A stretch of 51,955 bases of DNA, from positions 1-51,955 of the IMG/VR virus record IMGVR_UViG_3300037297_000097; one strand, 5' to 3'. The position numbers and the translations under genes were made by a program. Below the pieces are notes generated by a model that was not told the origin of the DNA, did no database searches, and saw nothing but the letters and a program-made list of their open reading frames with translations. This DNA is from a virus. Shown here piece by piece: positions 1 to 51,955 of the stretch (position 1 is its first letter; each line of letters opens with the position of its first letter).

Positions 1-127
1 GGCCGATCTGCGCGGGGCCAATCTGCACGACGGCCAGAACATATTGCAAATCGGCCCTGGCGGCTCATCAGGGCGCATGCTCTATGCCATCAGGCACGAC
101 GACGGGTTACGTATCAAAACCGGCTGC
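1..127. repeat. Exact 127-bp overlap with 51829..51955 (circular closure or terminal redundancy)
   Basis: Direct comparison: bases 1-127 are identical to 51829-51955; unit length 51,828 bp. Confidence 0.95.
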
Positions 128-256
128 TTCTGGGGCACTATCGACGAGTTCCGGGCGGCGGTTAATGAGAAGGCTGCCAATGATCCGCACCGACAATATT
201 ATACCGCTGTGTTGGCGCTGTTGCTGGTACAGCAGGCATTATGGGAAAATGAATGA
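1..256 (+). CDS. Pentapeptide-repeat protein, C-terminal part (5' part is 51233..51955)
   Basis: Same reading frame as the 51233 ORF once 51,828 is subtracted; track ORF 44..256 is its tail; stop TGA 254-256. Confidence 0.8.
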   Translation, partial: ADLRGANLHDGQNILQIGPGGSSGRMLYAIRHDDGLRIKTGCFWGTIDEFRAAVNEKAANDPHRQYYTAVLALLLVQQALWENE

Positions 257-474
257 TGACCAACAAACAAGCACCACCCGAAGATCTCGCCGCCTATATC
301 CGTGATCTGCCAACGCATGAGCGTCACGCGCTGGTGGCAAAACTGAATCGCCCACTTCGTACCTGGGGTGAAATGGTCTATTTTCCCAATGCCTCAAAAC
401 CGGTAGCTTATCGGTTACAATATTTTCAATGGCTTGTGAATACCTACATCCGAAACGATCAACCCCATGACTGA
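253..474 (+). CDS. Hypothetical protein, paralog of 51028..51240
   Basis: Shares the [17 protein letters not shown] motif with the 51028 product; ATG overlaps the upstream stop. Confidence 0.6.
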   Translation: MMTNKQAPPEDLAAYIRDLPTHERHALVAKLNRPLRTWGEMVYFPNASKPVAYRLQYFQWLVNTYIRNDQPHD

Positions 475-1144: not shown

Positions 1145-2176
1145 ATGGCTAACGGAACGTGGGCACAGAAGCAAGGACAAGTTAACCGACGCAAACGGGA
1201 AGCCGACGAACTCGATGCACGGGTCATCGGCAATCTGAAACCGGCGACAACCGGTTTCCCGCCAGAGCCGGAACAGACGAAGGTGAAAGGAATTGTGATA
1301 CCTATGAATGAAATTAAACCAGCACCCAAATTTACACGCGAAGAAATCCAGCAACTTTACGCACCATTCCCCCTGGAAGCCCACGACATCCGAGAAGGCT
1401 ACCGCACCAGCAACGGTAAAATCCGGTGGTTTGTCTACCTGAGTCGTAACGCCATTCAGCGCCGCCTTGACGAATTGTTTCCCGGTGAGTGGGAGTTTGT
1501 ACCCGGCGAACGTCACCAGACTGATACCCACGTCACCTATTCGGCCACGTTGATTATTCGCGGCATGAAGCGTGGATTCAACGGTGCATCAGACCCGGCC
1601 ACACGATGGGACGGGCCAAAAGGCAACAAAGAGCAAGTTACTGTTTTCAACGCCGATGTTGAAAAAGGCGCAATGACCGATACTTTCCGCCGGGTTGCTA
1701 GCCTCTGGGGATTGGGTGATTATCTCTATGATAGCGTCATGATCCATACCGCAGGCTATGAGCGCGGTCAATGGGACGATCAACGGGCGCGTGAAGTCGA
1801 TGCCAAAAAACAATTTGCGAATTGGTATAACGGATTGCCGCAAGGTAAATCCGCTGCTGAGACTCCCGCAGAAAATACCCCCACGCCGCCACAGACGCCC
1901 GAACCTGAAGCGCAGCAACCGAAAAGCCGCCAGGATACCAGTAACGCTGCAAAAACGCCAGAATGGTTTACGCCTCTGGTCACAATCATGAAGAAATGGC
2001 CGCACTTCGCAGATGGCAAAAAAGGCGCGGCCATCACCAAGCACGTTATCCATGCGCTCAACGCCATGCTGGAATCGGGCGAGTTATCATCGGATATGTC
2101 GCAAGCCGCCGCGCTTGAGATGGCAACGGCGAAATACAATTCACCCATTCAAGTAGAAGATGACGTGCAATTCTAA
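1145..2176 (+). CDS. Rad52/Rad22-like single-strand annealing protein
   Basis: RRLDELFPGEWEF and KGAMTDTFRRVASLWGLGDYLYD match the Rad52-family signature; Pro/Thr/Glu-rich C-terminal tail. Confidence 0.75.
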   Translation: MANGTWAQKQGQVNRRKREADELDARVIGNLKPATTGFPPEPEQTKVKGIVIPMNEIKPAPKFTREEIQQLYAPFPLEAHDIREGYRTSNGKIRWFVYLSRNAIQRRLDELFPGEWEFVPGERHQTDTHVTYSATLIIRGMKRGFNGASDPATRWDGPKGNKEQVTVFNADVEKGAMTDTFRRVASLWGLGDYLYDSVMIHTAGYERGQWDDQRAREVDAKKQFANWYNGLPQGKSAAETPAENTPTPPQTPEPEAQQPKSRQDTSNAAKTPEWFTPLVTIMKKWPHFADGKKGAAITKHVIHALNAMLESGELSSDMSQAAALEMATAKYNSPIQVEDDVQF

Positions 2177-6338: not shown

Positions 6339-6402
6339 CTGACACCCCGGAAGTCGCCATTAACGCCGCGTGGGAAGCGTGGCAGAAAGCGCAGGAAAGC
6401 TG

Positions 6403-7014
6403 ATGGCAAAGATACCCGATGGGTTTGTGCAGATTCCCGATTATCCACAGTATTTTATCAATGCTGATGGAGTCGTTTTGTCCACACACTACAAGCAGCC
6501 ACGTTCACTAACGCCTATACAAAATAGGGGATTTTGGTCAGTGTCACTTGTCAGAAACAAGCGCCCCAAAACCCATTATATTCACCGCTTGGTGGCTTCT
6601 ATTTTTTTGGAGCCAGCACCTTACCCAACGGCAAAGGTTGGTTTCATTGATGGCAATTCCAACCATTACTATGTTGGCAATTTGGAATGGATGATAGAAC
6701 GAACCCAACCACGATTTCAGTTATTGACCAGACAACAAGCCGCCGCTATATGGTTTCGTGTGCGCCGGGGCGAGATACAGGCTGATTTGGCAAAGGAATA
6801 TGGTGTTAATCCATCAACGATCTGCAATATTTGGAAAGGTCACATTCATAAGGCCCCACGACGGAAACTTTCTTCTGTGCAAGAACGCGCTGTTTATGAA
6901 CAGATTAGAAACGGTGCAACGTTGCGGGAAATAGCTCAGAAATATAATGTATCAATCTCCGTAATCCAACGAGTTATGATGCATCAAATTCATAAGGAGT
7001 CCCAAGCGGAATGA
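6403..7014 (+). CDS. HNH homing endonuclease (NUMOD4-like N-terminus, HNH_3-like core, C-terminal HTH)
   Basis: IPDYPQYFINADGVV, HRLVASIF and DGNSNHYYVGNLEW motifs; two HTH-like segments at the C-terminus; visibly AT-richer than its flanks. Confidence 0.75.
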   Translation: MAKIPDGFVQIPDYPQYFINADGVVLSTHYKQPRSLTPIQNRGFWSVSLVRNKRPKTHYIHRLVASIFLEPAPYPTAKVGFIDGNSNHYYVGNLEWMIERTQPRFQLLTRQQAAAIWFRVRRGEIQADLAKEYGVNPSTICNIWKGHIHKAPRRKLSSVQERAVYEQIRNGATLREIAQKYNVSISVIQRVMMHQIHKESQAE

Positions 7015-39782: not shown

Positions 39783-40136
39783 TTACAAATCCAGTTCGGC
39801 GCGGCGCTTCTCTATACTTTCCACCTTCTTTAAGATGGCGTCAACATCGGGCGCGGACAACTGCATTCGTCGCCCAATCCACCGCAAGAGTCGTAAGCCA
39901 GATAGAGCGCGGACGGGCTTATCGGGATACTCTTTGAATGTATACTTATGAGGTTGTGTGGCAACTTCGAGTAAATGCAGTACGCGCTTTTGCGGCGGGG
40001 TAAGTGCTGGCGGCGGCTTGAGCAATGCCTGATTTTCAGTATTGCGCGGCCTGAGATTGGCCGGTACAGCGTTATCGATGTCGCCAAACCGCTTGCGCTC
40101 TTTGACAGGAATGTAGGATTTGTTGGGATTGGTCAA
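39783..40136 (-). CDS. Hypothetical protein, candidate late-gene regulator
   Basis: Last gene before the late promoter; LTPPQKRVLHLL ... LSAPDVDAILKKV is HTH / sigma region 4-like. Confidence 0.4.
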   Translation of the reverse strand: MTNPNKSYIPVKERKRFGDIDNAVPANLRPRNTENQALLKPPPALTPPQKRVLHLLEVATQPHKYTFKEYPDKPVRALSGLRLLRWIGRRMQLSAPDVDAILKKVESIEKRRAELDL

Positions 40137-40151
40137 TGTGCGCTCCCATGT

Positions 40152-40349
40152 TTACTGCTGTGAATGGCTCCAATATTGCGCGGCGGTGCGATAGCCATTA
40201 CGTAGCGCCACAAATGGGCCAAACTGCGTCAGGTCGTGAATGAATGATTCAATGAGATTTTGCCGGTTGATCTGCCAACCTGTACCCCAATAGACCGGGC
40301 GTACATGGATATGGCGTTTGAACACCGTATAATACAGACGGGTTATCAT
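40152..40349 (-). CDS. Hypothetical protein
   Basis: 65-aa ORF with an ATGA overlap. Confidence 0.45.
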   Translation of the reverse strand: MITRLYYTVFKRHIHVRPVYWGTGWQINRQNLIESFIHDLTQFGPFVALRNGYRTAAQYWSHSQQ

Positions 40350-40711
40350 TCTTGCGCCTTTTCGTATTCAACATCTGGCGTGTTCGGATCGAAACGAGTC
40401 AACATTCCCGTGATGATTTCCATCAGCGCCGCATCAGAACATACCCGCAAGCGCTCATGCTCAATGACACCCCAATGATGCCAGGTACACTCAGGATCAT
40501 CCTGGTCAGGCCAACCCACCGTGACCCGCACATGGGCCTTGCGTGGCACGTCATAGCAGGCCAGCACGAAACAATCCCCCGGATAGAGATAGCAGGCGGT
40601 TTCAAGCAAATGTTTCACCCGTCTAGACCGGGATGTCAAGAGACTGTCCGCGTTCCCGTAGGATTCATCGTGCATGACTTGATCGAACTGGTTTTCGATT
40701 GACTGGCTCAT
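40346..40711 (-). CDS. Hypothetical protein
   Basis: Start moved to ATG 40711 behind SD GGAG. Confidence 0.5.
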   Translation of the reverse strand: MSQSIENQFDQVMHDESYGNADSLLTSRSRRVKHLLETACYLYPGDCFVLACYDVPRKAHVRVTVGWPDQDDPECTWHHWGVIEHERLRVCSDAALMEIITGMLTRFDPNTPDVEYEKAQE

Positions 40712-40735
40712 GGGCGCTCCGTTGCTGTTTCTCTC

Positions 40736-40744
40736 AGTATACCA
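40736..40744 (-). promoter_or_regulatory. Extended -10 promoter element TGgTATACT
   Basis: Minus strand CTGTGGTATACTG, 25 nt upstream of ATG 40711. Confidence 0.4.
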
Positions 40745-40789
40745 CAGGCTGTCAATATCCCAAATATATCCCAAACGCAAGCGTCAACC

Positions 40790-40825
40790 AAAAACGCCGC
40801 CTGGACAAGTCCACGTTGGCGGCGT
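40790..40825 (-). terminator. Strong intrinsic terminator
   Basis: 8-bp stem ACGCCGCC 40794-40801 / GGCGGCGT 40818-40825; on the minus strand it is followed by TTTTT. Confidence 0.65.
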
Positions 40826-41035
40826 CTCTGGCTTGCTTCGTTTTACCGGTCTAGCGTCTAGCTTTACAGCCCTCCCACTTTCGAGGCTTTTTCACGCGTA
40901 GACCCGTATCGCCCTCTCAGGCTCCCACGTTTACGGCACGTGGTAGGCCGGGTGTTAGGGCTTTTCAGTCGGGCGATTATCCCTAACTTTTCCGCCTGCC
41001 CCTCTTGCGAGTTCGTCCGAGGCGGTTCCGCGTAT
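40790..41035 (-). ncRNA. Candidate structured non-coding RNA of about 245 nt
   Basis: Promoter-like TTGCAT (41070-41065), 17 nt, TATACT (41047-41042); multiple 6-8 bp GC-rich hairpins; ends at the 40790-40825 terminator; no credible ORF. Confidence 0.35.
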
Positions 41036-41191
41036 GCATTCAGTATACACCCAAACGCGCCGGGATGCAACTATTTTCTCGGCGCTTTCCCACCAAACCC
41101 GCGACGGCGGTCTGCCGTCTTCCGCGCCCTGCCCCGCGCTTTTCACGGCGCGGTGGCCCCTACCTGTCATGAACGCCAACACCCATTGCCG

Positions 41192-41398
41192 CTATCGTCC
41201 CTTAATCTCATCGCGCACCGCTTCCAACAGCGCGATTTCTTCGTCCGTGAAAAACTCTGGCCCTTCATAAAACGCCGCCCACACTATATCGAACAGCGCG
41301 TCCCGCTGCTCCGTCACCGCCGCCAGCTGTGCGCGGTAGGTTTCCTTGTCGGCTAATGCTTGCCGTATGCCGACGGCGATGTTCTTTTCGTAGGTCAT
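41192..41398 (-). CDS. Hypothetical protein
   Basis: 68-aa ORF with an ATGA overlap with the upstream methyltransferase gene. Confidence 0.5.
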   Translation of the reverse strand: MTYEKNIAVGIRQALADKETYRAQLAAVTEQRDALFDIVWAAFYEGPEFFTDEEIALLEAVRDEIKGR

Positions 41399-42216
41399 AA
41401 TGACTCCTCGCTTGCTAAATCGAATAGGGGTAATCCGGTCATATCATTATCCGACTTCACATGGCGCGGCTCCAGGATACTGGTTCGCAAGCGATCCCGC
41501 GCGATGGCGACGTATTCGGCGCTGGTATCACCCATGATGAAATGGCGCTTGAGATTACGCACCGCTACGCCAGTTGTGCCAGAGCCACAGAACGGGTCGA
41601 GAATGAGTTCGCCCGGTTGGGTGTAAGTTTTGATGAGATATTCGTAAAGGGCGACGGGCTTTTGGGTGGGATGGAGACCGGTTTCGTAAATATATTCTAA
41701 GACGCTACTTGGAACACGTAAATTAACATCAAAAGCCCTTCGGTGAGGAAAATTCACGCTACCATACGCATACCCTGTGTCTATACGCTTGTCCGGTTTG
41801 TATCCATATTTAGCGCGTTCCCTATCTTTTCGGCCAATTAAAATAGGATAATAATTCGGAGTACCGTCTGAGAAAACAAGAATATTTTCATGTTCCTTCA
41901 TTGGTTCAATTTTAGCATTTAGAAAATTTGACCCTCGGTTTTTCCTCCATACCCACTCATACCGAAACCACGCCAAATTACTACACACCAGAATACTCGT
42001 AAACGGTTGGCTTGCCGTCGTCACGAATACCCCGCGTGGCTTCAGTATGCGCTTGACCGCCTTCCACCATTGATCCAGATCAACCCGTGCATCCCACGAG
42101 CAGGCCGTCGTACCGTAAGGCATGTCAGTGATGATCGCGTCCATACTCGCGTCGGGCAGCGCCGCCATGAGGTCGAAGCAATCCATCTGATGCACACTGT
42201 CTAACTCAACGCTCAT
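41395..42216 (-). CDS. DNA methyltransferase (beta-class N6-adenine or N4-cytosine)
   Basis: Motif IV variant DMPY near the N-terminus, HPTQKP, and motif I FCGSGTT near the C-terminus. Confidence 0.85.
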   Translation of the reverse strand: MSVELDSVHQMDCFDLMAALPDASMDAIITDMPYGTTACSWDARVDLDQWWKAVKRILKPRGVFVTTASQPFTSILVCSNLAWFRYEWVWRKNRGSNFLNAKIEPMKEHENILVFSDGTPNYYPILIGRKDRERAKYGYKPDKRIDTGYAYGSVNFPHRRAFDVNLRVPSSVLEYIYETGLHPTQKPVALYEYLIKTYTQPGELILDPFCGSGTTGVAVRNLKRHFIMGDTSAEYVAIARDRLRTSILEPRHVKSDNDMTGLPLFDLASEESL

Positions 42217-42832
42217 AATGATCCACCGCTTTCGTCTCCGTTGCCACCGTCGCTATCGCCTCAAAAATATCCAACCCGTCAATCTCATTGCCCAAGCAAA
42301 ACCAGTTATCCCGCACCCGCCGCGCGAACAGTTCGCAGTACGGGCCATCGACAAGGCGCTCAATGCGATCTTGCGCCGCTTCCGGCTTCTCACTGTGGCG
42401 TGTCACTGGCGCAACGACCACCTGCGAAATATCTTTTGCCTTGCGCTTCGGGCTGCCCCAGGTAAACAGCAATACCAGTTCCGCATTGCCCCGTGTCCAG
42501 TAGCCGAGTCCCATTTTCCACACATCGGTAGACATGGGCTGTGTGAACCAGACCCCCGTGTGAGACTCGTTAATTTTCACCCACGTGAAGGCGACGGTCT
42601 TGTAGGTCAACCCCCACGCTTTCCCTAGCGCGATTGCCACGTCAAGCTTGGGCATGGTGGCCCACATGAATACAGCAGCGTCGGGTAGGAGTAGCGATTG
42701 AATGGGTAGTTCTGAGAGATTGCAATCGGTCAACAATGGATATTGAGACTCAGCAATTCGCGTAGGTACAGTCGCGCCGCTCCATGCCTCATATGTCCAG
42801 GGCGGATCAATGACAACCGCGCCAAATCTCAT
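42206..42832 (-). CDS. MT-A70 family adenine methyltransferase
   Basis: VVIDPPWTYEAWS (DPPW) motif near the N-terminus; about 200 aa, typical of phage MT-A70 enzymes. Confidence 0.8.
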   Translation of the reverse strand: MRFGAVVIDPPWTYEAWSGATVPTRIAESQYPLLTDCNLSELPIQSLLLPDAAVFMWATMPKLDVAIALGKAWGLTYKTVAFTWVKINESHTGVWFTQPMSTDVWKMGLGYWTRGNAELVLLFTWGSPKRKAKDISQVVVAPVTRHSEKPEAAQDRIERLVDGPYCELFARRVRDNWFCLGNEIDGLDIFEAIATVATETKAVDHYER

Positions 42833-44757
42833 GAGTATTCGAATCCTTTCTCTGGTTTCGCCACCGTCACCGGTAGCTCGCGCTGGGCCGTCGCTGGCGG
42901 CTGGGCGGGCAGGTTGGGCAGTACCCGCGTCGTCAACTGGGCATCCCGCGCCCCTGCCGTACTGCGCCGTGCATCATAGACCATGAGGCGTTCAGGACAC
43001 CAGGGCACGTAGAACTCTGGCGACGGCCCGGCAGTGCTGTTTTTCATGATCCTGGCACGGAGCAAAGCATTGCCTTCTTTGTCGCGCTGTGGCACACCGT
43101 CGGCCACATGCGGTACGGCAAACAATAGCAGTTGAAAGGGCTGCTCAGACATCCACTGCATGGCGCTCAATTCAAACTCGCCGCCATCGCGCACCTTGTC
43201 GGCGTCGGACTTTTTCATCTGTGATGCCACGAACAGCGCCAACTCCAACTGGTTGCAGACTTCCCTGATGATTTCCAGCGCCACGTCAAGCGGCATCCGG
43301 CTGCTACGCTCCTGATTTTCGAGCCATAGTTGCTGGCCGTAATCGATCCAGACTGCCGACGGCTTGTTGCCCGCTGCTACCATCTTTTGGTAGTATTTGC
43401 GGATAGCCTTTACAATACCCTCAGCCGACAACCCCGGCACGGTTCCGTAACAGTTGCGCCCCGGCATTTCGCGTAGTTGCGTCACAATCGCCTGGGCCTT
43501 TTGCACCTGCTCTGAATCCAATTTTTGGTAGCCATTGCAGGATCGCCCCGATGCTTCCGCCCGCAACGCCAACTGGTGCGCTTGCATCTGGTTATACGTC
43601 GGGCCGCCCATACGCTGCATGAGCCGGTTGCCAAACTTGCGCCCGTGTTTATCCATCCACTCACCGGATATGAGAATGCTGTGAACGCCACGCTGCATGA
43701 GATTGAACACACCCGTTTCCATCCAAATCGTTTTTCCGCCGCCCGACGGCGCAACAATGCCCATGATCTCGTTTTGGGCGATGATATGGGCGATACCGCC
43801 GTATTGATGCAAAATGCGGTACGGGTTCTCGATGCTCATCAGGCCGTCGGGTTCGTGCAGGCTGCCGAGGATGTTGCTGTACACCGCATCGCTGCTGATG
43901 GATGTCAGGTGCGGATCAACTTCGTCCTGTTCTGGCACTGTGAACGCCGAACGCTGCAACTCCCGTAACGCCCTGTCGCCATGCAACATACAGAAATCGG
44001 CCAAATCGCCACCGTTTGTCAATCCCAGTTCGGCGACCCGTGCCCGGTGGCCGAGTTGCGCTTGCAGCGTCTTACGCCAGTTGTCACCCGTCATATCGCA
44101 GTCGGGAGCCAGGATAATGTCACCCGTCCATTTGTCGTCTAGTTCCTGGATCATGGAGTCAGTCAGCGCACTTTCGCCGCCGGTCTTGCAGGCCACCGGC
44201 AGTCCGTGATGCAGCCCGGCTACAACCGACGCTTCGCCATTGCACAAAATGATGGGTAGCTGTTGCTCAGTTGCCAGCGCTACCGCCTTGTCGAGACCAT
44301 ACCAACATGGTACGTATTCGGTGGGCGAGTCGTAGGTTGGTTTGTTGCCGTCCATGAACCGGGCGCGTTCCCCAGTCTGCGTCTGGAACAGCAGCGCCTT
44401 ACGTCCTTTACGTTCACCCTCAGACCATTTCGCCCGTTCATAGGCGTCTAGCGTTGCGCCGTGTGCAATGGCGTATTCTTCCAAATTGGCATACGTGCGC
44501 TTGGTGCTGGTGACCTCCTTGCGCGGTGTCGGGATTTTGAGGTAATCGGCCAGCGCATAGAGGGAACCGCTTTGACCGGCTGGAAAATCGATGTACGCCC
44601 CATGTTCACCGTCCGGGTCGATGGTTAGCACAAACCCCATACTGTCACTGCCAGGGCGATACGGACTGTTGGAGCGCCACTTGCCGCCGCGCTCCGCTCT
44701 GGCGTTGCAATGCGTTTGTAGGTGGGCGATGACTTGCTGGCCGGTGGTCTGGGTCAT
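42829..44757 (-). CDS. Bifunctional DNA primase / replicative helicase
   Basis: Toprim-like CNGEAS...APDCDMTGD in the middle; Walker A APSGGGKT and Walker B-like VWIDYG in the C-terminal half. Confidence 0.8.
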   Translation of the reverse strand: MTQTTGQQVIAHLQTHCNARAERGGKWRSNSPYRPGSDSMGFVLTIDPDGEHGAYIDFPAGQSGSLYALADYLKIPTPRKEVTSTKRTYANLEEYAIAHGATLDAYERAKWSEGERKGRKALLFQTQTGERARFMDGNKPTYDSPTEYVPCWYGLDKAVALATEQQLPIILCNGEASVVAGLHHGLPVACKTGGESALTDSMIQELDDKWTGDIILAPDCDMTGDNWRKTLQAQLGHRARVAELGLTNGGDLADFCMLHGDRALRELQRSAFTVPEQDEVDPHLTSISSDAVYSNILGSLHEPDGLMSIENPYRILHQYGGIAHIIAQNEIMGIVAPSGGGKTIWMETGVFNLMQRGVHSILISGEWMDKHGRKFGNRLMQRMGGPTYNQMQAHQLALRAEASGRSCNGYQKLDSEQVQKAQAIVTQLREMPGRNCYGTVPGLSAEGIVKAIRKYYQKMVAAGNKPSAVWIDYGQQLWLENQERSSRMPLDVALEIIREVCNQLELALFVASQMKKSDADKVRDGGEFELSAMQWMSEQPFQLLLFAVPHVADGVPQRDKEGNALLRARIMKNSTAGPSPEFYVPWCPERLMVYDARRSTAGARDAQLTTRVLPNLPAQPPATAQRELPVTVAKPEKGFEYS

Positions 44758-44800
44758 GGGTCTATTGTCCTATGTTTGCAGAATCACTAATTGCTGGCAG

Positions 44801-45120
44801 CTACATCTCGCAGTAGTGCAAATCGCCAGCATCGCGCCCGCTGATTGTGCCCTCGGTTACGGTTACATCGGGTTTGAATTCATCGTCCAAATCATCAACC
44901 CAGTCATCCCACTCGCCGTCCTGAGTGAAAATCAGGGGTGTTTCCCAGATACCCGTTACTGTCCAGCATGGGCGAATTTCATCGGTTTCAAACCACGCCA
45001 AATCATCTTCATAGCGGGCGATAGACATGGGATAATATTTGGGCACATTCGCTCCATACTTGGACTGAACGCGCCGCATTTGTTCGAGTTCCGCTTCCCA
45101 TTGTTCGCGTACTGTTGCCA
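44801..45120 (-). CDS. Hypothetical protein, paralog of 10299..10622
   Basis: Start moved to ATG 45120 behind SD GGAGGAAAA; conserved RPCWTV and VTVTEGTISGRDAGDL motifs. Confidence 0.6.
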
Positions 45121-45149
45121 TTTTTCCTCCTGCGATCATAGAACCTCGC

Positions 45150-46151
45150 TTATCCTCTACCCAACTCATCAAGCGTATCCTGCAACAGCGTGGCCGAGTC
45201 CGCCCATTCGATGTCTTCGTTGGTGTCGATCTCTTTCGCGGGCGTTGGCTTGCCGTTCGGCTTGCCTGCGTGTATCCAGGACATGACACTGCTCTGGACT
45301 TTGGGTATACTTGTCATCATACTCAATTCGGCATTATTGCCCTGATCGCGCCACCATTTCGCCCACCGTCGTATATCCTCAACATCGTCAAGGGGCGGCT
45401 CAACATTCCAACCCTTCTCTGACTTGACCGTCAATTTACCTTGAAGTACCTTACACATCTTGCCGTTCAAAGAACCCGCCAACCCAAACACCTCGAAAAT
45501 CGTATCATACCAGGGATTACGTGGCCGTTCTTTTTTTGGTGGCGCATCTGGTAAATCAGGAACAAAGTTCTGCCTTTTAAGCCGAACTCCTTTTTGTGCG
45601 ACAACTTCCATTTCCGTCGCATCGGGCAACCCATCCACAGGCGTTACCGCAATGTCATCCTCTGTCACATCGTAAGAGGTTGCCGCCACGTCACCGCTTG
45701 CCGCCACGTCACCGCTTGCCGGTGGCGTAATAGACTGACGGTTAACTGACGGTTCTAAGGACGTTTCGTCGGACATCTGGGTGTCAGGGGTAGGTAGGAC
45801 ACCCAGATGTCCGACCTGGGGTGACACCTGGGTGTCAGGGGTGACACGGGTGTCAGGGGTAGTGTTTGGCTTGTATTCGGGCTTCAAAATCGCGTTCTCA
45901 AATGCAGTCTTGTACTTCGTTGTCTTTCCCGCCCGGCGTTCTTGCACGACAAGCAATTTTTTCTCAACAAGCTTACGAATTAGTCGCCTAACCTGCCGTT
46001 CAGAGTAGTTGGTTTTCCATGCGATAAGTCCCATACTCGGATACATATTCTCGCCCTGATGGTCGGCGTGGTCAGTCATCGCTAGCAATACAACCAATTC
46101 ATTGGTTGGTAGATCAAAATCCCATACCTGTCCCGATATTTTTCCGCTCAT
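45150..46151 (-). CDS. Replication initiator-like protein (N-terminal winged HTH)
   Basis: N-terminus NELVVLLAMTDHADH...YSERQVRRLIRKLVEKKLL is wHTH-like; iterons lie inside the gene; the primase-helicase gene is 1 kb downstream. Confidence 0.6.
   Translation of the reverse strand: MSGKISGQVWDFDLPTNELVVLLAMTDHADHQGENMYPSMGLIAWKTNYSERQVRRLIRKLVEKKLLVVQERRAGKTTKYKTAFENAILKPEYKPNTTPDTRVTPDTQVSPQVGHLGVLPTPDTQMSDETSLEPSVNRQSITPPASGDVAASGDVAATSYDVTEDDIAVTPVDGLPDATEMEVVAQKGVRLKRQNFVPDLPDAPPKKERPRNPWYDTIFEVFGLAGSLNGKMCKVLQGKLTVKSEKGWNVEPPLDDVEDIRRWAKWWRDQGNNAELSMMTSIPKVQSSVMSWIHAGKPNGKPTPAKEIDTNEDIEWADSATLLQDTLDELGRG
45681..45859. repeat. Origin-like repeat cluster inside the initiator gene
   Basis: 18-bp unit x2 at 45681-45716; 18-bp perfect inverted repeat 45768-45785 / 45798-45815; TGGGTGTCAGGGG at 45778 and 45829, a 12-nt form at 45848; GGGGTGACAC at 45818 and 45838. 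Confidence 0.7.
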
Positions 46152-46163
46152 GTTACTACCTCA

Positions 46164-46436
46164 CTAGTCCCAGTCTTGCCGTCTGAAAAAACCGTACTGA
46201 TTCACGGTTGGATAGTCTGGATCATAATAGATACATTCGTTGAAATACAAGTAGGCTTTGGGGTCGTCGCCCTCATTGATGATACCCAACCCAATAACGC
46301 GCTTGACTTCTACCGGGGCAATCAGTTTGCCGTTGTGTATCCAGTCATAGGCGCGTAGAAGTTTCTCATCGAGGATTTCGAGAATGCGCGGTTGGGGGCG
46401 ACGTTTGTAGGTATAGGGCTTTTTCTTTTTACTCAT
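46164..46436 (-). CDS. Hypothetical protein
   Basis: SD GAGGTGA within the junction repeat; 90-aa ORF. Confidence 0.5.
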   Translation of the reverse strand: MSKKKKPYTYKRRPQPRILEILDEKLLRAYDWIHNGKLIAPVEVKRVIGLGIINEGDDPKAYLYFNECIYYDPDYPTVNQYGFFRRQDWD

Positions 46437-46445
46437 GCTGTCACC

Positions 46446-46655
46446 TCAGAATGGAATGTCATCATAATAGTCGGGGATATAGGTTTCCCAGGGAATGTCA
46501 TTGTCATTGGCGTAGGGCGTGTTGTATTCAGTCCATTCCTCGCAAACCCATTCCTCGCCATTGTGCCAGGAGGTGCGAAAATGCACAACGTCATCGTCGC
46601 CCCATTGTTCGCATAACATCCCGTCGCCAATGTCCCAGTCGTAATTATCGCTCAT
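46446..46655 (-). CDS. Small very acidic, Trp/Tyr-rich protein
   Basis: 69 aa rich in D/E and W/Y; ATGA overlap with the upstream stop. Confidence 0.5.
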   Translation of the reverse strand: MSDNYDWDIGDGMLCEQWGDDDVVHFRTSWHNGEEWVCEEWTEYNTPYANDNDIPWETYIPDYYDDIPF

Positions 46656-46903
46656 GATTGATCCTCAGGAACCAATGTATCACTGTGCCAGGGCCTCACT
46701 TCGATATGCTCAGCAAAATCGGCATCGGCCCTGATAATGAGTTTACCATTAATGTAAATCAATTCTACAGGATAGCCATAGGTTGAATCTTCTGGGCAAA
46801 CCCTGATACTCATATACTGATTGCGAAATACATCAACATCAGTTAGATTCGTCTGACTTCTAACCATTGCTGGATAGAGACCTTCTCCCATTGATTTGCT
46901 CAT
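46652..46903 (-). CDS. Hypothetical protein
   Basis: SD GAGGTGA within the junction repeat; 83-aa ORF. Confidence 0.5.
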   Translation of the reverse strand: MSKSMGEGLYPAMVRSQTNLTDVDVFRNQYMSIRVCPEDSTYGYPVELIYINGKLIIRADADFAEHIEVRPWHSDTLVPEDQS

Positions 46904-46931
46904 GCTATCACCTCAGAAACTAAAAACCGAT

Positions 46932-47068
46932 TGGACACAGCGGGACTCGAACCCGCTCCCCCGACACTCTGGTCGGGCATAGGCTGGCGTGATACGGCGT
47001 CCCGCGTCCGTTTCAGCCTATCGTCTGGCGTACTTACCAGACCGATGCTGCCATTACACCATGCGCCC
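46932..47068 (-). ncRNA. 137-nt tRNA-like element with no canonical anticodon arm
   Basis: Minus strand: acceptor GGGCGCA/UGUGUCC (two G-U pairs), U8, D-arm with A14/GG/A21, T-arm GCGGG-UUCGAGU-CCCGC, discriminator A; an 86-nt core of three hairpins replaces the anticodon arm. Confidence 0.5.
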
Positions 47069-47077
47069 GTAATGGAA

Positions 47078-47320
47078 TTAGCGATACTCGTAAATCCGCA
47101 CTACCTGAATATCGGGTGGGTCTTGTGGGTAATATTTTCCCTCCACCCTAATCTCTGAAAGAGATAGGCGTATTGGGTCTGCGCCCTTTCGCATCTGAAC
47201 GCGGAAACACCCAGGTTCGATGGTTTTATATACCCCACGAACACCGGGTATCCATTCCTTGAGCAATTTCTTCACGTTGCCCACATCGGTTTCGTTTGAA
47301 TTTAGCCAGCATTTCACCAT
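47078..47320 (-). CDS. Hypothetical protein
   Basis: Start moved to ATG 47320 behind SD AGGAGGAAAA. Confidence 0.5.
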   Translation of the reverse strand: MVKCWLNSNETDVGNVKKLLKEWIPGVRGVYKTIEPGCFRVQMRKGADPIRLSLSEIRVEGKYYPQDPPDIQVVRIYEYR

Positions 47321-47480
47321 TACTTTTCCTCCTGGGATACAAAAACCCACTTGTCTCAAGATACTTTCCGGCTTCCTGGCAGTCCCGACGTGGGTAGGAA
47401 AAGACAGAAAGCACCCTGAGAAAAATGGGTTTTTCCACGTCGTCTAGAGGGCTGCCAGTCCCGTTTATCACTCGCCTACC

Positions 47481-47508
47481 AGTATACCGCAAACCGGCGC
47501 GGTGTCAA
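47481..47508 (-). promoter_or_regulatory. Sigma70-type promoter
   Basis: Minus strand: TTGACA 47508-47503, 16-nt spacer, TATACT 47486-47481. Confidence 0.6.
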
Positions 47509-47516
47509 GGGGTTAG

Positions 47517-47744
47517 TTATTCCCATCGCGCCAGCACAAACACGGTATCCCCCTCGATCTCAGAGTCAAATACCAGTTGATGGTTATCGAGAAAATCCTT
47601 GTATCGTCCCATGATGCGGTGCATGACATCGGCGGGGCATACCTTAGCCGATACGGTATCGTCGCCATTGTCTATAACCAAGATGACATCGCTTTTGCCG
47701 TCCCAGTCTGCTAGTGTTGAAATGATGTTTAGCGGAGCGCTCAT
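47517..47744 (-). CDS. Hypothetical protein
   Basis: SD GAGGTA; 75-aa ORF. Confidence 0.5.
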   Translation of the reverse strand: MSAPLNIISTLADWDGKSDVILVIDNGDDTVSAKVCPADVMHRIMGRYKDFLDNHQLVFDSEIEGDTVFVLARWE

Positions 47745-47753
47745 CAGTCTACC

Positions 47754-47972
47754 TCACTTCTGATCTCGCTTAATCCATCCATCAATCAAACCGCTCAAAA
47801 GCCATCTATACTTTGGCGGCAATTCATCAGTCTCATGATATGGAATCCTGTCTGTTTCGTTATATGATTGAATTAGTTTGGATACGGTGTTTTGTTGCTC
47901 CTCTAGAGTTGCCCGATATAATCCGTGTTCAAAGCCATCGAGATACCAGTCGGTCAATGATTTGTCAGTCAT
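47754..47972 (-). CDS. Hypothetical protein
   Basis: Start moved to ATG 47972 (TGATG overlap with the upstream stop; MTD start). Confidence 0.5.
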   Translation of the reverse strand: MTDKSLTDWYLDGFEHGLYRATLEEQQNTVSKLIQSYNETDRIPYHETDELPPKYRWLLSGLIDGWIKRDQK

Positions 47973-48199
47973 CAGTCTATTTTCTCCCATGTGCCATTAC
48001 TATCCCATATCGCGCCGATCTGTTCGTTGGTTAGTCCACATGTCGTCAGGTGTCGTACAATGCGTGTCTGTAAACCATCTGGAAAATACGTCACACGTGG
48101 GGCAAGGCGGGCAGCCATGCGGGTAAACAGAGGGTACTGCGTAAGTAGCCAGAGTCGCAGGCACAACAGCCACAGCGCATTAGCAAACGATTCATGCAT
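47972..48199 (-). CDS. Hypothetical protein
   Basis: Start taken as ATG 48199 (TAATG coupling to the upstream small ORF); the track ORF starts at 48211. Confidence 0.45.
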   Translation of the reverse strand: MHESFANALWLLCLRLWLLTQYPLFTRMAARLAPRVTYFPDGLQTRIVRHLTTCGLTNEQIGAIWDSNGTWEKID

Positions 48200-48339
48200 T
48201 AGTACTGCCATCGTTCAATAGAAAAAGGGTGTCGCCATGTCCAGCGGCGAAAATATCCAGTTTTATACCAGGAAATATGGAAGCCGTAACAACCGCCAAA
48301 ACATATGTTAAATTCCCATTTGTCACATTCTTCATTCAT
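48199..48339 (-). CDS. 46-aa Cys/aromatic-rich small protein (below the track cutoff)
   Basis: Hand-translated as MNEECDKWEFNICFGGCYGFHISWYKTGYFRRWTWRHPFSIERWQY; SD GGAGAG 6 nt before the ATG. Confidence 0.35.
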   Translation of the reverse strand: MNEECDKWEFNICFGGCYGFHISWYKTGYFRRWTWRHPFSIERWQY

Positions 48340-48358
48340 GATTTATCTCTCCTCATCC

Positions 48359-48658
48359 TCACTTCTGGTTCGCTGGATTGCGGTATTCTGTGCGCTTCGA
48401 TGACGTTTTGTAGCGGCGCTTCGGCTTGTGTTTTGGCGGCCCAATCAGTTTCAGAGGTGCGGGGGCCTGCGACTTGGCTCTGCCATCGAAATGTTGACGT
48501 GCGGCTTCAATGGCTAAATTCTCAGTGCGCTTGACCGTCGTGTATTCAATCGTGCTGGTCTCTTTTGCGCCACTGCGAACGATGAGGCGAACGCCGAGCG
48601 CGTGGGGTTCTGTCCAGGCATAAAAGCGATCCAGTCGAAATGGGTAGAGCCGTTCCAT
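48359..48658 (-). CDS. Hypothetical protein with a basic C-terminal tail
   Basis: SD GAGAGGGAA; 99-aa ORF. Confidence 0.45.
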   Translation of the reverse strand: MERLYPFRLDRFYAWTEPHALGVRLIVRSGAKETSTIEYTTVKRTENLAIEAARQHFDGRAKSQAPAPLKLIGPPKHKPKRRYKTSSKRTEYRNPANQK

Positions 48659-48661
48659 GAT

Positions 48662-49018
48662 CTATTCCCTCTCATCAAATAGACGCTGCAAATCAGTGAA
48701 GACCTGAACGCCGCTATCATCCAACAGCATATTGCTAGTGTACCGTAGCACACGCCAACCGTTGACAACGGCCAGATTGTATTTCTCACAATCCCGTGCG
48801 TAACCCGCGCCGCGTGTGTGCCGTCCGTTACGCCATGTACCACCCTCGATCTCAACGGCAACACGGTGTTCAGGCCATGCGAAGTCAAAGCGGAATCGGC
48901 GTGGTTTGGCAAATCGGTATTGTGTTTCTGGTTTTGGGATATTGACACCGTTCCATCGCATGAGCGTTAAAAACGCCTGCTCAAGTTGGCTCATCGGCGC
49001 TGGCCTCCAATGCTTCAC
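48662..49018 (-). CDS. Vsr/DUF559-like endonuclease-fold protein
   Basis: FRFDFAWPEHRVAVEIEGG...WRVLRYTSN matches the DUF559 / very-short-patch-repair core. Confidence 0.65.
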   Translation of the reverse strand: MKHWRPAPMSQLEQAFLTLMRWNGVNIPKPETQYRFAKPRRFRFDFAWPEHRVAVEIEGGTWRNGRHTRGAGYARDCEKYNLAVVNGWRVLRYTSNMLLDDSGVQVFTDLQRLFDERE

Positions 49019-49421
49019 GGGCGATTGTTAAGGCAAGGTCTTGCCATGTCGCAAACGCATCACGTTCATGCTTTATATCACCAGACAGTGGGAAATAGTA
49101 AATTTCCAGATTGGCAATTGCTTCAAGCGCTGCCCGCAGCCGTACCAAATATCTCTCAATCCAATCTGCCACATCGCCAGACGTGTCGGGAACATTGTTC
49201 TCCTTGACCATGCCAAGTAAGCGGGCGCAAAGGACACGATATTCCTTTTCCAGGAAGGCATTGTCTTTTAGCAACCGCGCGTTGTCGGCTTTGAGGGCTT
49301 CGTGTTCCTGCGCCCATTCGTTGCGCCACTGTAGCAAATTGCCCAGCGTAAAATCGTCGGAACCGTCAACATCGGGAAATTCGAACGGGGCGTTATCCAT
49401 TGCGGCTGTATCATTCATCAT
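48981..49421 (-). CDS. Hypothetical protein
   Basis: 146-aa ORF, coiled-coil in the middle. Confidence 0.5.
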   Translation of the reverse strand: MMNDTAAMDNAPFEFPDVDGSDDFTLGNLLQWRNEWAQEHEALKADNARLLKDNAFLEKEYRVLCARLLGMVKENNVPDTSGDVADWIERYLVRLRAALEAIANLEIYYFPLSGDIKHERDAFATWQDLALTIAREALEASADEPT

Positions 49422-49641
49422 GATCCTCCAATGCCATCTTTAGGTAGTTTGCCACCTCATGGCGCGGCTTAATGGTTTTCAAATCTTCAACCGCTTGCTG
49501 AATCGCCGCCCGCAGTTGCGTGTTCTCTGCTGTGATAGCCTCGATATGCAATAGCAATGTATGCACATCGCCACGTGAACTGACTGCATATTTCCCCAAT
49601 TCCTCAGCCGTTAACCGGCCGCCCCTTTTTACGGTCATCAT
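49411..49641 (-). CDS. Hypothetical protein
   Basis: 76-aa ORF; SD GGAGGTGA. Confidence 0.5.
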   Translation of the reverse strand: MMTVKRGGRLTAEELGKYAVSSRGDVHTLLLHIEAITAENTQLRAAIQQAVEDLKTIKPRHEVANYLKMALEDHDE

Positions 49642-49695
49642 TCACCTCCGTTTTGAATAGCGCTTGTCGGTTCAAATACCATGTGAAGCACCGCT

Positions 49696-50358
49696 TCACC
49701 CATCATGATCCTCCAGGTCAATCCAGATAGTGCCACGTAATGGTGAACTGGTCATCAGCCGTTCACAATCTGCGCAGGTGATTTCGAGCGTAACCGTAGC
49801 ATGTCCGTTCTCACTATAGCCCATTGGCATCACTGGGACACCCGCCACAATGTAATCCCGTTTCGCCAGCACCGCCTCACGCGCCTCGGCTTGCACCCGC
49901 TCGGCCACTGCCTCGACAACCGGCTGCTGTGTGCCATCGGCCAGTTCCACCGCGCCCGTTGCGATAGTCTGGGAGAAGCATTCTAGCGCCGATTTGATCT
50001 TGGGCGCGGTCAGTACGTTCGTGCCGTGCAGCGTGGCGGCGTTGTAGACTTGCTGTGTCAATTCGTCGGGCACATCACGGAACGCAATCAGCGCGGCGTT
50101 AGACTGTAACACATGTGATACATTTTTCAGCGCCTTGAGTTTGTCAAGCCCTTCTGCTGCCCACAGCTGGCGGTACAGCCATTGCCGTTTCTTGCCGAAA
50201 TATTTGAGGCAAAACGCCTCCCAGGATAGGCCAAAGAGTTTGTTGGCGTTCATGTCGTAGAGGCGCTTGAGGGCGTGTTGCGCGGCGTCGAGATGATCGT
50301 TTACGGAGACAATGAGTTCAGCAGCGATGCTCATAGGGGTTCGGTCAATTTGGGGCAT
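49696..50358 (-). CDS. Putative DNA-binding protein
   Basis: SWEAFCLKYFGKKRQWLYRQL resembles ParB/KorB-type HTH proteins; second gene of the leftward arm. Confidence 0.4.
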   Translation of the reverse strand: MPQIDRTPMSIAAELIVSVNDHLDAAQHALKRLYDMNANKLFGLSWEAFCLKYFGKKRQWLYRQLWAAEGLDKLKALKNVSHVLQSNAALIAFRDVPDELTQQVYNAATLHGTNVLTAPKIKSALECFSQTIATGAVELADGTQQPVVEAVAERVQAEAREAVLAKRDYIVAGVPVMPMGYSENGHATVTLEITCADCERLMTSSPLRGTIWIDLEDHDG

Positions 50359-50360
50359 GA

Positions 50361-50609
50361 TTAAGCATCCTCAGGTTCAATTACTCTGAGCGAATTTGGT
50401 ACTGTGTACCCATTGATGACAATTGCTGATAATTTGCCCTCGGCAAGCATACGCTTGATATGATACCGTGCCCCGTTATCTGACATATGCAGTGTCTTGG
50501 CAATGTCTTTTACTGACGGGGACTCGTCATATCGGGCGCGGTGACGTTGGATTTTGTCAATGATTTTTTGCTCTTTGATTAGTGTTTGCGGCCAGCGCGA
50601 TTTTGACAT
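50361..50609 (-). CDS. Winged-helix transcriptional regulator (LexA-N/MarR-like), candidate repressor
   Basis: SPSVKDIAKTLHMSDNGARYHIKRMLAEGKL; first gene of the leftward arm, next to the promoter cluster. Confidence 0.6.
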   Translation of the reverse strand: MSKSRWPQTLIKEQKIIDKIQRHRARYDESPSVKDIAKTLHMSDNGARYHIKRMLAEGKLSAIVINGYTVPNSLRVIEPEDA

Positions 50610-50619
50610 AATTTAACCC

Positions 50620-50649
50620 TTGACAGTTACTAAACTTTTGGTCTATACT
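50620..50649 (+). promoter_or_regulatory. Rightward early promoter
   Basis: TTGACA 50620-50625, 18-nt spacer, TATACT 50644-50649. Confidence 0.6.
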
Positions 50650-50650
50650 G

Positions 50651-50679
50651 AGTTTAATCGTTTTGGCGTTTTTTGTCAA
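50651..50679 (-). promoter_or_regulatory. Leftward early promoter, overlapping face-to-face with the rightward one
   Basis: Minus strand: TTGACA 50679-50674, 17-nt spacer, TAAACT 50656-50651. Confidence 0.55.
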
Positions 50680-50792
50680 TACCTACCTACCCTATCGTGA
50701 TATATCCCAAAAAACTACCAGAATTGAAGTGTTTAGAGGGTAGAAATGAATGGTGGGGCAGGGGGCGCAACAGCCCCCGGAGAGGATGTGCG

Positions 50793-51023
50793 ATGGAAAA
50801 ACCCATGAAAGAATTACTGGAACAGTGGAGCGCGGCAATGCACTCTGATGACGTCAACCTACGTAATGAAGCGTTGCTGTTTTTCTATTATATGACACGC
50901 GGTGGATTGCATATGCTGAACAGTAGCGCCAAAGCCCCTCTACAATCCGAAACATCAACCCAAGCACGGGAATACCTCTCAACGTTACATGCTTGGTTGA
51001 GTGAAGAACTGGGCAAGGACTAA
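50793..51023 (+). CDS. Hypothetical protein
   Basis: Start moved from 50673 to ATG 50793 behind SD GGAGAGGA. Confidence 0.55.
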   Translation: MEKPMKELLEQWSAAMHSDDVNLRNEALLFFYYMTRGGLHMLNSSAKAPLQSETSTQAREYLSTLHAWLSEELGKD

Positions 51024-51027
51024 CCCA

Positions 51028-51240
51028 ATGCCCCACACACCACCTGACGAACTCGCCGCCTATATTCGCAGTCTGCCAACGCACGAGCGGCACGCGCTGG
51101 TGCGACTGTTGAGCAAGACGTTTGTGTCGCCAACGACAGGCGACAACGTGTATCCATATGCCAACGATAGATATGGTCATGATGTGAAATATTTTCAAGC
51201 GCTCGTGTGCCATATGAAGGAGGATCACCCCAATGACTGA
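51028..51240 (+). CDS. Hypothetical protein, paralog of 253..474
   Basis: Start moved from 51001 to ATG 51028 behind SD AAGGA; motif [18 protein letters not shown]. Confidence 0.6.
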
Positions 51241-51955
51241 CACCACACGCACATTTGACGAACTAAAGGCCGCGCGTATGCAGGCCGCAGATAAAAGCAT
51301 GAAATGGAGTTTGACGGCAGACGAAGTGAAGATCGTTATGGAGCGCGAGGCCAATCTGAGCGAGGCCAATCTGCGCTACGCCGATCTGAGCGAGGCCAAT
51401 CTGAGCGAGGCCAATCTGCTCTATGCCAATCTGCTCTATGCCAATCTGAGTGAGGCCAATCTGAGCGAGGCCAATCTGAGCGAGGCCAATCTGAGCGAGG
51501 CCAATCTGAGCGAGGCCAATCTGCGCGGGGCCGATCTGCGCGAGGCCGATCTGAGCGGGGCCAATCTGCTCTATGCCAATCTGAGCGAGGCCAATCTGCG
51601 CGGGGCCGATCTGAGCGAGGCCAATCTGCGCGGGGCCGATCTGCGCGGGGCCGATCTGAGCGAGGCCAATCTGCGCGGGGCCAATCTGCTCTATGCCAAT
51701 CTGAGCGAGGCCAATCTGCGCGGGGCCGATCTGAGCGAGGCCAATCTGCTCTATGCCAATCTGCGCGGGGCCGATCTGTACCGCGCCGATCTGAGCGAGG
51801 CCGATCTGCGCGGGGCCGATCTGCGCGAGGCCGATCTGCGCGGGGCCAATCTGCACGACGGCCAGAACATATTGCAAATCGGCCCTGGCGGCTCATCAGG
51901 GCGCATGCTCTATGCCATCAGGCACGACGACGGGTTACGTATCAAAACCGGCTGC
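51233..51955 (+). CDS. Pentapeptide-repeat protein, N-terminal part (continues at 1..256; 283 aa in total)
   Basis: Hand-translated: [15 protein letters not shown]..., then about 32 consecutive A(N/D)L(S/R/L)(E/G/Y) units; open to the window end, so absent from the ORF track. Confidence 0.85.
51345..51860 (+). repeat. Tandem 15-bp coding repeats (GAGGCCAATCTGAGC and close variants)
   Basis: Near-identical 15-bp units, up to five exact consecutive copies at 51441-51520, in frame with the pentapeptide-repeat ORF. Confidence 0.9.
51829..51955. repeat. Second copy of the 127-bp terminal overlap
   Basis: Identical to bases 1-127. Confidence 0.95.

Follow-up and report, generated by a model that had tools for sequence, protein, structure and literature searches.

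The viral stretch analysed here, IMG/VR record IMGVR_UViG_3300037297_000097 (positions 1 to 51,955, hereafter the window), carries a gene for a pentapeptide-repeat protein (PRP) that is cut in two by the window ends. The gene is real and intact, and it encodes a cytoplasmic protein of two modules. The first is a solenoid of tandem pentapeptides, which is the fast-evolving part of the protein, and the second is a C-terminal domain (C-domain) that stays constant across a large unnamed phage family, defines it and is its best conserved part. We hold this identity and the evolutionary behaviour of the PRP described below with high confidence.

The two halves of the gene are reunited through the contig ends. 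Bases 1..127 of the window are an exact copy of 51829..51955, either a terminal direct repeat or an assembly overlap. This leaves 51,828 unique bases and indicates that the contig is circular or terminally redundant. The original prediction had joined 51233..51955 directly to 1..256 and so overlooked the copy; because 1..127 duplicates the contig end, it must be dropped on joining, and the correct join is 51233..51955 plus 128..256. The predicted length of 283 residues nevertheless stands, as the joined frame measures 852 nt, or 283 codons and a TGA stop (254-256). Codons 1-241 lie on the plus strand at 51233..51955, where the frame runs off the window end, and codons 242-283 with the stop occupy 128..256 on the same strand. 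The join is validated independently because the overlap contains 91 bp of unique, non-repeat sequence and because the window edge splits the invariant GCFWG motif of the family between GC and FWG, which the join restores. Direct reading of the sequence places a strong ribosome-binding site, AGGAGG, at 51218..51223 (plus strand), 9 nt upstream of the ATG. The start of the PRP gene overlaps the stop of the gene before it, and its stop overlaps the start of the gene after it. The protein begins with a 37-residue N-terminus, continues with 34 uninterrupted, in-register pentapeptides (aa 38-207) and ends in a 76-residue non-repeat C-domain (aa 208-283, encoded by 51854-51955 and 128..256). The N-terminus had been delimited correctly in the earlier reading, the units were undercounted at about 32, and the tail, put at about 75 residues, was nearly right. 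For the N-terminal 57 residues, no homologue candidate was found in a set of 5.8 billion proteins.

By sequence, the protein is a genuine PRP, matching PF00805 in five stretches with a score of 203 bits (cut-off 20.2; E=2.8e-61). A single-sequence AlphaFold model assigns one strand to every five residues and reaches a predicted local distance difference test (pLDDT) score of 83-98 over residues 71-190, with poorly predicted termini. The top 38 Foldseek matches of this model in the PDB are all pentapeptide solenoids: the synthetic consensus ‘Beta1’ proteins and Nostoc Np275/276 score best, followed by HetL, MfpA, QnrB1 and AlbG (E from 1e-13 to 1e-8). The repeat region is therefore predicted with high confidence to form a right-handed quadrilateral pentapeptide beta-helix with four units per coil, and model and structural matches agree in this with the fold originally proposed. 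Thirty-four such units would make about 8.5 coils and a rod about 4 nm (~41 Å) long at the usual rise per coil of such helices.

The array behind this rod is unusually uniform at the DNA level. It occupies 51344..51853 on the plus strand, where 34 units of 15 bp encode aa 38-207 in the register xxA(N/D)L. Tandem Repeats Finder reports 51343-51864 with period 15, 34.7 copies, 82% matches, no indels and a score of 608. There are 11 unit types, the commonest being the SEANL unit AGCGAGGCCAATCTG, present 12 times, followed by RGADL (seven) and LYANL (five). Alanine is encoded by GCC in all 34 units and the central leucine by CTG in all 34, although GCC accounts for a share of just 0.32 of the alanine codons, and CTG for 0.27 of the leucine codons, elsewhere in the genome. 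Across all pairs of window units, codon differences number 19 synonymous against 997 non-synonymous. Which positions of a pentapeptide unit face inward and which outward is established from pentapeptide structures. Variation among the units is limited to the codons of the three outward-facing positions, while the inward alanine and leucine codons are invariant. Most unit variants differ by a single substitution at one codon base (AGC/CGC, GAG/GGG or AAT/GAT).

Unit comparison identifies the most recently amplified part of the array as a tract of 72 bp (51452..51523, plus strand) with perfect 15-bp periodicity, made up of about five SEANL units, or 4.8 units exactly. Within it, 51452-51511 holds four complete, exact GAGGCCAATCTGAGC units; the original prediction had described the near-identity correctly and counted up to five exact units in a row, one more than are complete. 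Elsewhere, a 75-bp exact duplicate (51555-51629 and 51675-51749) recurs at a spacing of 120 bp, equivalent to eight units or two coils. Since the units are nearly identical and the 75-bp block is duplicated, they share very recent DNA ancestry and were amplified both singly and in blocks. The array thus looks recently expanded or homogenised. In three coils, LYANL units (five in all across the array) take the fourth place of the coil and hence the same face of the helix, where they could form a hydrophobic stripe.

Such a row of DNA repeats might instead act mainly as DNA, for example as iterons, an origin or a protein-binding array, with the open reading frame (ORF) incidental. The 34 tandem copies do lie near a divergent promoter region, and ORFs on the opposite strand are open as well, the latter simply due to the repeat. 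However, the plus-strand frame has a ribosome-binding site, overlapping starts and stops, a strong Pfam match and a C-domain homologous to hundreds of proteins. The restriction of unit variation to outward-facing codons likewise speaks against an incidental frame, as do relatives in which very dissimilar DNA units encode a protein of the same architecture. We rejected the iteron or origin reading on this protein-coding evidence and regard it as scarcely credible.

The C-domain, treated as incidental in the original prediction, is the part of the protein that defines its family. No Pfam or NCBIfam model matched it. It matches phrog_20532 (E=7e-11) and phrog_7964, neither with an assigned function. 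PADLOC defence models gave no match for the whole protein and a single, non-significant one for the C-domain (E=0.03). When 1.84 billion cluster representatives were searched exhaustively with phmmer, 722 proteins matched at E<=1e-3, 49 of them at E<=1e-10, and each of the 722 represents a cluster at 50% identity. With one 1980-aa outlier set aside, the matches listed measure 70-297 aa and end in the domain. A profile search of the 5.8-billion-protein set found 801 proteins at E<=1e-5, named just ‘hypothetical’ or ‘pentapeptide repeat’; nearly all are metagenomic, and several lie on contigs of phage size (40-50 kb). A search of 185,579 species genomes gave only three matches, on contigs of metagenome-assembled genomes. 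The window C-domain is 35-55% identical to those of family members. The family also includes EBPR siphovirus 1 gp3 and the BFVD entries A0A6J7X720 and L0LC68, which have the same C-domain by sequence and predicted structure.

The family consensus reads ILxIGPxGSRGDxLYAVxHxxGxMxKxGCFWGTLxEFxAAV...H...Y.AA, and the window protein has the residues I213, G217, P218, G220, S221, G240, C241, F242, W243, G244 and Y266, all at conserved positions. Gly240 is invariant, Cys241 is at least 90% conserved in an unbiased alignment, Pro218 is nearly invariant and Tyr266 is 99% conserved. Modelled from an alignment of 44 sequences, the C-domain is predicted to adopt a beta4-alpha2 fold with the strands before the helices (pLDDT 92.3, predicted template modelling score 0.82). 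A Foldseek search of this model against the PDB gave no significant match (best E=0.15). BFVD, by comparison, contains matches with a template modelling score of about 0.7 and a root-mean-square deviation of 1.5-2 Å, located at the C-termini of predicted phage proteins. They include proteins of the Bacillus phages phiAGATE and Bp8p-T and, more weakly, of Listeria phage LMTA-57 and Staphylococcus phage Twort, and their annotations range over pentapeptide, hexapeptide or YdcK-like transferase, ‘polymer-forming cytoskeletal’ and beta-solenoid.

What precedes the C-domain varies in kind as well as in length. Family members share a layout of a short N-cap, tandem solenoid repeats and the domain at the extreme C-terminus, and they also share phage DNA-metabolism neighbourhoods and arrays that are homogeneous at the DNA level and variable in copy number. 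Pentapeptides are replaced by hexapeptide A(R/W/Q)VxG(D/N) repeats before the same C-domain in the IMG/VR contigs L010 and L013, in Mycobacterium phage Boilgate gp64 (L022, 3485-4258) and in a protein of Paenibacillus phage Pd_22F (L023, 3542-4279). These hexapeptide repeats are of the left-handed beta-helix (YdcK-like) type, and the Boilgate and Pd_22F proteins are the sole cultured-phage representatives identified by sequence. A third solenoid has Cys at every third residue (CSDCRGCIGCIDCRGC...) and extends over ~160 residues in L002 (5389-6189) and ~65 in L003 (5686-6198). Within this diversity the window protein is extreme: it has 34 units, the most among 221 members counted, against a median of 11, it is the most acidic of 219 over N-terminus and rod, and its N-terminus lacks a detectable homologue. 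BFVD also contains a 332-aa pentapeptide member of the family.

The turnover seen in the window recurs throughout the family. Units within 9 of 13 arrays from independent phages show zero synonymous differences, and the codon set used is specific to each lineage. Pre-domain length differs in 374 of 387 pairs of proteins with C-domains at least 90% identical. One clade of 27 proteins with a shared N- and C-terminus and C-domains at least 90% identical spans 122-189 aa, and pentapeptide copy number within one clade runs from 4 to about 18 units. Unit number also separates the near-identical phage pairs L011/L012 and L002/L003, the latter differing by about 96 residues of Cys-rich repeat. The family as a whole therefore shows concerted evolution, its arrays often gaining and losing units. 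We infer that slippage, or unequal recombination between 15-bp units of identical DNA, drives these gains and losses. Both the recent expansion or slippage originally proposed and the copy number that may vary are thereby well supported. In its in-frame, DNA-identical units and its copy-number polymorphism among near-identical genomes, the array resembles the variable-number tandem-repeat ‘contingency’ loci known in coding sequence. Since a 15-bp unit keeps the frame, however, changes in copy number do not turn the gene on or off but alter how long the rod is and what surface it presents.

An array of this kind also invites error in assembly, a caution raised in the original prediction and justified by the contigs. 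The gene could be real while its 34-unit array is partly an assembly product, whether collapsed, expanded or the consensus of a population heterogeneous in copy number. The window itself breaks 2.3 units before the array end. An independent JGI contig of the same phage (3300042731, 51,670 bp) starts 149 bp further inside the array, and the PRP gene called on it is just a 70-aa, TTG-started fragment. Half of eight related IMG/VR contigs (L008, L009, L010 and L013) end inside their own arrays, and copy number is polymorphic among close relatives. On the other side, no exact repeat within the array exceeds 75 bp, whereas the terminal overlap measures 127 bp, so that the path through the array would contain no repeated k-mer if the assembly used k = 127, which is an assumption. 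The unique sequence in the overlap and the restored motif also argue for a faithful junction. We consider a partly artefactual array rather unlikely. Searches of IMG/VR and JGI metagenome contigs for exact DNA patterns from the PRP gene gave no match. Family genes are probably under-called or truncated systematically in metagenome annotations.

The original prediction had pointed to the gyrase-binding proteins Qnr, MfpA and AlbG as models. According to this explanation, the PRP would mimic DNA to bind the gyrase of the host, which it would inhibit or protect during infection. The likeness is one of predicted fold: Qnr, MfpA, AlbG and McbG share the quadrilateral beta-helix, about 8 coils and an acidic surface, the coil number being like that of the MfpA monomer, and MfpA, QnrB1 and AlbG are among the Foldseek matches. 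The window rod is acidic too, with a net charge of -15 over 170 aa (29 D/E, 14 K/R). In addition, a pentapeptide-like protein of a P100-like Listeria phage, encoded in an operon of hypothetical genes, has been linked by HHpred-type comparison to gyrase-inhibiting PRPs (PMC12282133). Several differences nonetheless separate the window protein from this group. Firstly, it falls below every family cut-off, scoring 72.2 bits against 240 for Qnr (NCBIfam NF033086), 40-66 against 425-500 for the Qnr subfamily models and 57.9 against 360 for MfpA (NCBIfam NF000349). Its identity to these proteins is 14-27%, compared with 42-50% to consensus-type PRPs. Secondly, loops A and B interrupt the helix in QnrB1 and AhQnr and are needed for gyrase protection; helix-interrupting loops are absent from the window protein, whose 34 units run without insertion and with 0% indels. 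Thirdly, the gyrase-binding proteins end in a C-terminal dimerisation helix, through which MfpA pairs tail to tail into a rod of DNA size, and come from resistance or immunity loci, in contrast to the 76-aa, predicted beta4-alpha2 domain and the phage operon found here. Finally, relatives of the window protein carry solenoids that are not pentapeptides, and McbG and QnrB failed as general anti-defence DNA mimics in a BREX test (PMC7261183). A Qnr- or MfpA-type function is accordingly improbable.

The closest counterparts of the rod are instead the consensus-type PRPs, namely Nostoc Np275/Np276, HetL, Alr5209 and ‘Beta1’ (PDB 4ycq, 4yc5), which give the best structural and sequence matches (42-50% identity for Np275/276 and ‘Beta1’, E about 1e-13). 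They share with it near-ideal A(D/N)LXX units, each centred on leucine. Among NCBIfam models, those of Alr5209 and HetL score highest, driven by the repeat in four stretches on a 113-position model. Unlike the window protein, none of them has the C-domain (a profile against PDB sequences matched just the repeat edge, at E>3), and they are cyanobacterial cellular or designed proteins, not phage proteins.

In the genome, the PRP gene is the third ORF after a sigma70-like promoter candidate (TTGACA-18-TATACT, 11 of 12 consensus matches) at 50620..50649 on the plus strand, and no terminator-like site lies between that candidate and the gene. This agrees with its original placement in the first operon after a rightward promoter. 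A divergent candidate (TTGACA-17-TAAACT, also a consensus match) occupies 50679-50651 on the minus strand, and the two sit back to back in a 64-bp gap between divergent gene blocks. Next to them, 50361-50609 on the minus strand encodes a helix-turn-helix (HTH) protein. The rightward block extends from 50673 through the junction to about 12 kb and contains small genes, an Erf/Rad52-like protein, HTH regulators and an HNH endonuclease with an HTH domain (6370-7014). The Erf/Rad52-like protein is a single-strand annealing protein of 343 aa in the same operon (1145..2176, plus strand; phrog_1097 E=2.9e-10, with a weak Rad52_Rad22 match at E=0.0035), and its gene lies three genes downstream of the PRP gene. 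The leftward block holds a DnaD-like replication protein, an N6/N4 DNA methyltransferase (41395-42216; PF01555 E=1e-33), the terminase and, presumably, the structural genes. There are no tRNA genes in the window. The phage itself is novel, as a megablast of 40000-51955 gave no match among INPHARED phages and its terminase is about 30% identical to actinophage terminases.

The PRP gene is flanked by a pair of paralogs, both on the plus strand. The upstream gene (51028..51240) encodes 70 aa, and the downstream gene (253..474) encodes 73 aa and overlaps the PRP stop through ATGA. Their products are 47% identical (E=4e-18) and share a motif beginning PP(D/E), with no match to Pfam, PHROG or another family. 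The PRP gene and the gene following the second paralog (467-889) have the same ATGACTGACA start. Together, the flanking paralogs and the shared start suggest local duplication or cassette insertion. Homology between the N-terminus of the PRP and that of the 140-aa protein encoded at 467-889 was rejected (E=0.84).

Family genes in other phages keep similar company. In L004 the gene precedes ERF and SSB, in L005 it lies just downstream of SSB with one small ORF between, and in L018 it precedes a PD-(D/E)XK nuclease. It sits beside SNF2-type helicases in L016 and L002 and near VRR-NUC in L001. In Boilgate it adjoins the primase/helicase, and in Pd_22F it is near a DUF2800 protein and the DNA polymerase.

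From this evidence we propose, tentatively and at somewhat under an even chance, that the PRP is a stoichiometric binder or decoy. The rightward sigma70-like promoter would drive it together with the single-strand annealing recombinase as one operon, and it would bind or sequester a host or phage protein of DNA transactions or defence. The conserved C-domain would serve as the constant contact or oligomerisation part and the rod as an interaction face tunable in length and surface; in the acidic window member, that face could imitate DNA. Three features lead us to prefer this mechanism: the placement in an accessory and recombination operon, the acidity of the protein (net -17 over N-terminus and rod, the most acidic among 219 family members) and the acidic SEANL sequence of the most recently amplified unit. 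Putative early expression, acidity and small size are also traits of T7 Ocr, ArdA, lambda Gam, T7 gp5.9 and T4 Arn, which are DNA mimics of unrelated folds. Lambda gam lies next to bet and exo, and several relatives' genes are similarly promoter-proximal to recombination genes. A further hint comes from the Staphylococcus phages Remus and Romulus, both of which gained a substitution in a pentapeptide-repeat protein when bred for host range (PMC8065394); their proteins, which need not share the C-domain, are, like the Listeria phage protein above, to be read as hints.

A number of points weigh against this proposal. Family solenoids are near-neutral on average (median near neutral), 28% are net positive, and they comprise several fold types, so that DNA mimicry cannot be the conserved mechanism of the family; decoy action as a DNA mimic may still apply to this unusually acidic member. 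The early expression assumed in the original prediction is no more than suggested by gene position and a promoter consensus match. Contigs of this phage and of its relatives break within the array, so the exact count of 34 units is provisional. Literature searches returned no characterised phage pentapeptide or anti-defence protein, and no experiment or characterised homologue that ties the family to a function. Lastly, conservation in the C-domain falls mostly on Gly, Pro and aromatic residues, besides one Cys and one Tyr, a pattern that fits a purely structural cap.

The family data that argue against DNA mimicry make an effector role for the C-domain the main rival to the binder or decoy mechanism. 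The C-domain would then be a small enzyme, or a module that binds a ligand or protein, built around the invariant Gly-Cys and Tyr, and the solenoid an adjustable rigid spacer or scaffold whose surface does not mimic DNA. The C-domain alone is conserved in the more than 700 clusters, its fusion partners include pentapeptide, hexapeptide and Cys-rich repeats alike, and rod charge is not conserved. Rod length changes by single units, each of which turns the ends by 90 degrees relative to one another, so the two ends need not keep a fixed geometry. G240 and C241 are invariant or nearly so, with Y266 close behind, and the local likeness of GCFWG to an enzyme active site points the same way. The same five residues (aa 240-244; 51952-51955 and 128-139) make up the active-site motif of methionine sulfoxide reductase A (MsrA). 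Homology to MsrA was rejected: a C-domain profile against PDB sequences gave E=0.09 over 20 residues, no MsrA appeared among the Foldseek PDB matches, and hhalign gave a probability of 31% over 13 columns with an E. coli MsrA sequence. The likeness is thus confined to 13-20 residues and does not extend to the fold, which counts against an enzyme. So does one member (P0026) with Asp in place of Cys, and the Gly, Pro or aromatic character of most conserved positions suits a structural cap. An effector domain on a spacer would also leave unexplained the amplification of the acidic SEANL unit in this member. We regard it as unlikely, if still a serious contender, and give the explanation preferred here, taken as a whole, roughly an even chance of being right.

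A broader and more speculative view, which we consider fairly unlikely, is that the family represents a widespread, unrecognised class of ‘modular solenoid’ phage proteins with a constant C-domain and a rod whose length, surface and even fold type are swapped rapidly by repeat turnover at the DNA level. The gene would then be a contingency locus at a phage-host or phage-phage conflict interface, acting for example as a length-tunable decoy or inhibitor of host complexes for DNA-targeting defence or repair, and the window member would be an extreme acidic, DNA-like expansion.

Phage PRPs are usually given an annotation and no further attention, or are loosely labelled as gyrase inhibitors. In this family the informative part is the C-domain, which defines hundreds of phage proteins and has neither a Pfam or NCBIfam model nor a relative of solved structure. 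The repeat part is a hypervariable tandem array with near-zero synonymous diversity and a copy number that differs between near-identical phages. The arrays are recurrent contig breakpoints, for which reason gene callers systematically truncate or miss the genes, as they did here. At the least, these results provide a useful caution on annotation and assembly in phage metagenomics; should the family act at the phage-host conflict interface, it would constitute a new class of evolvable counter-defence or host-takeover proteins.

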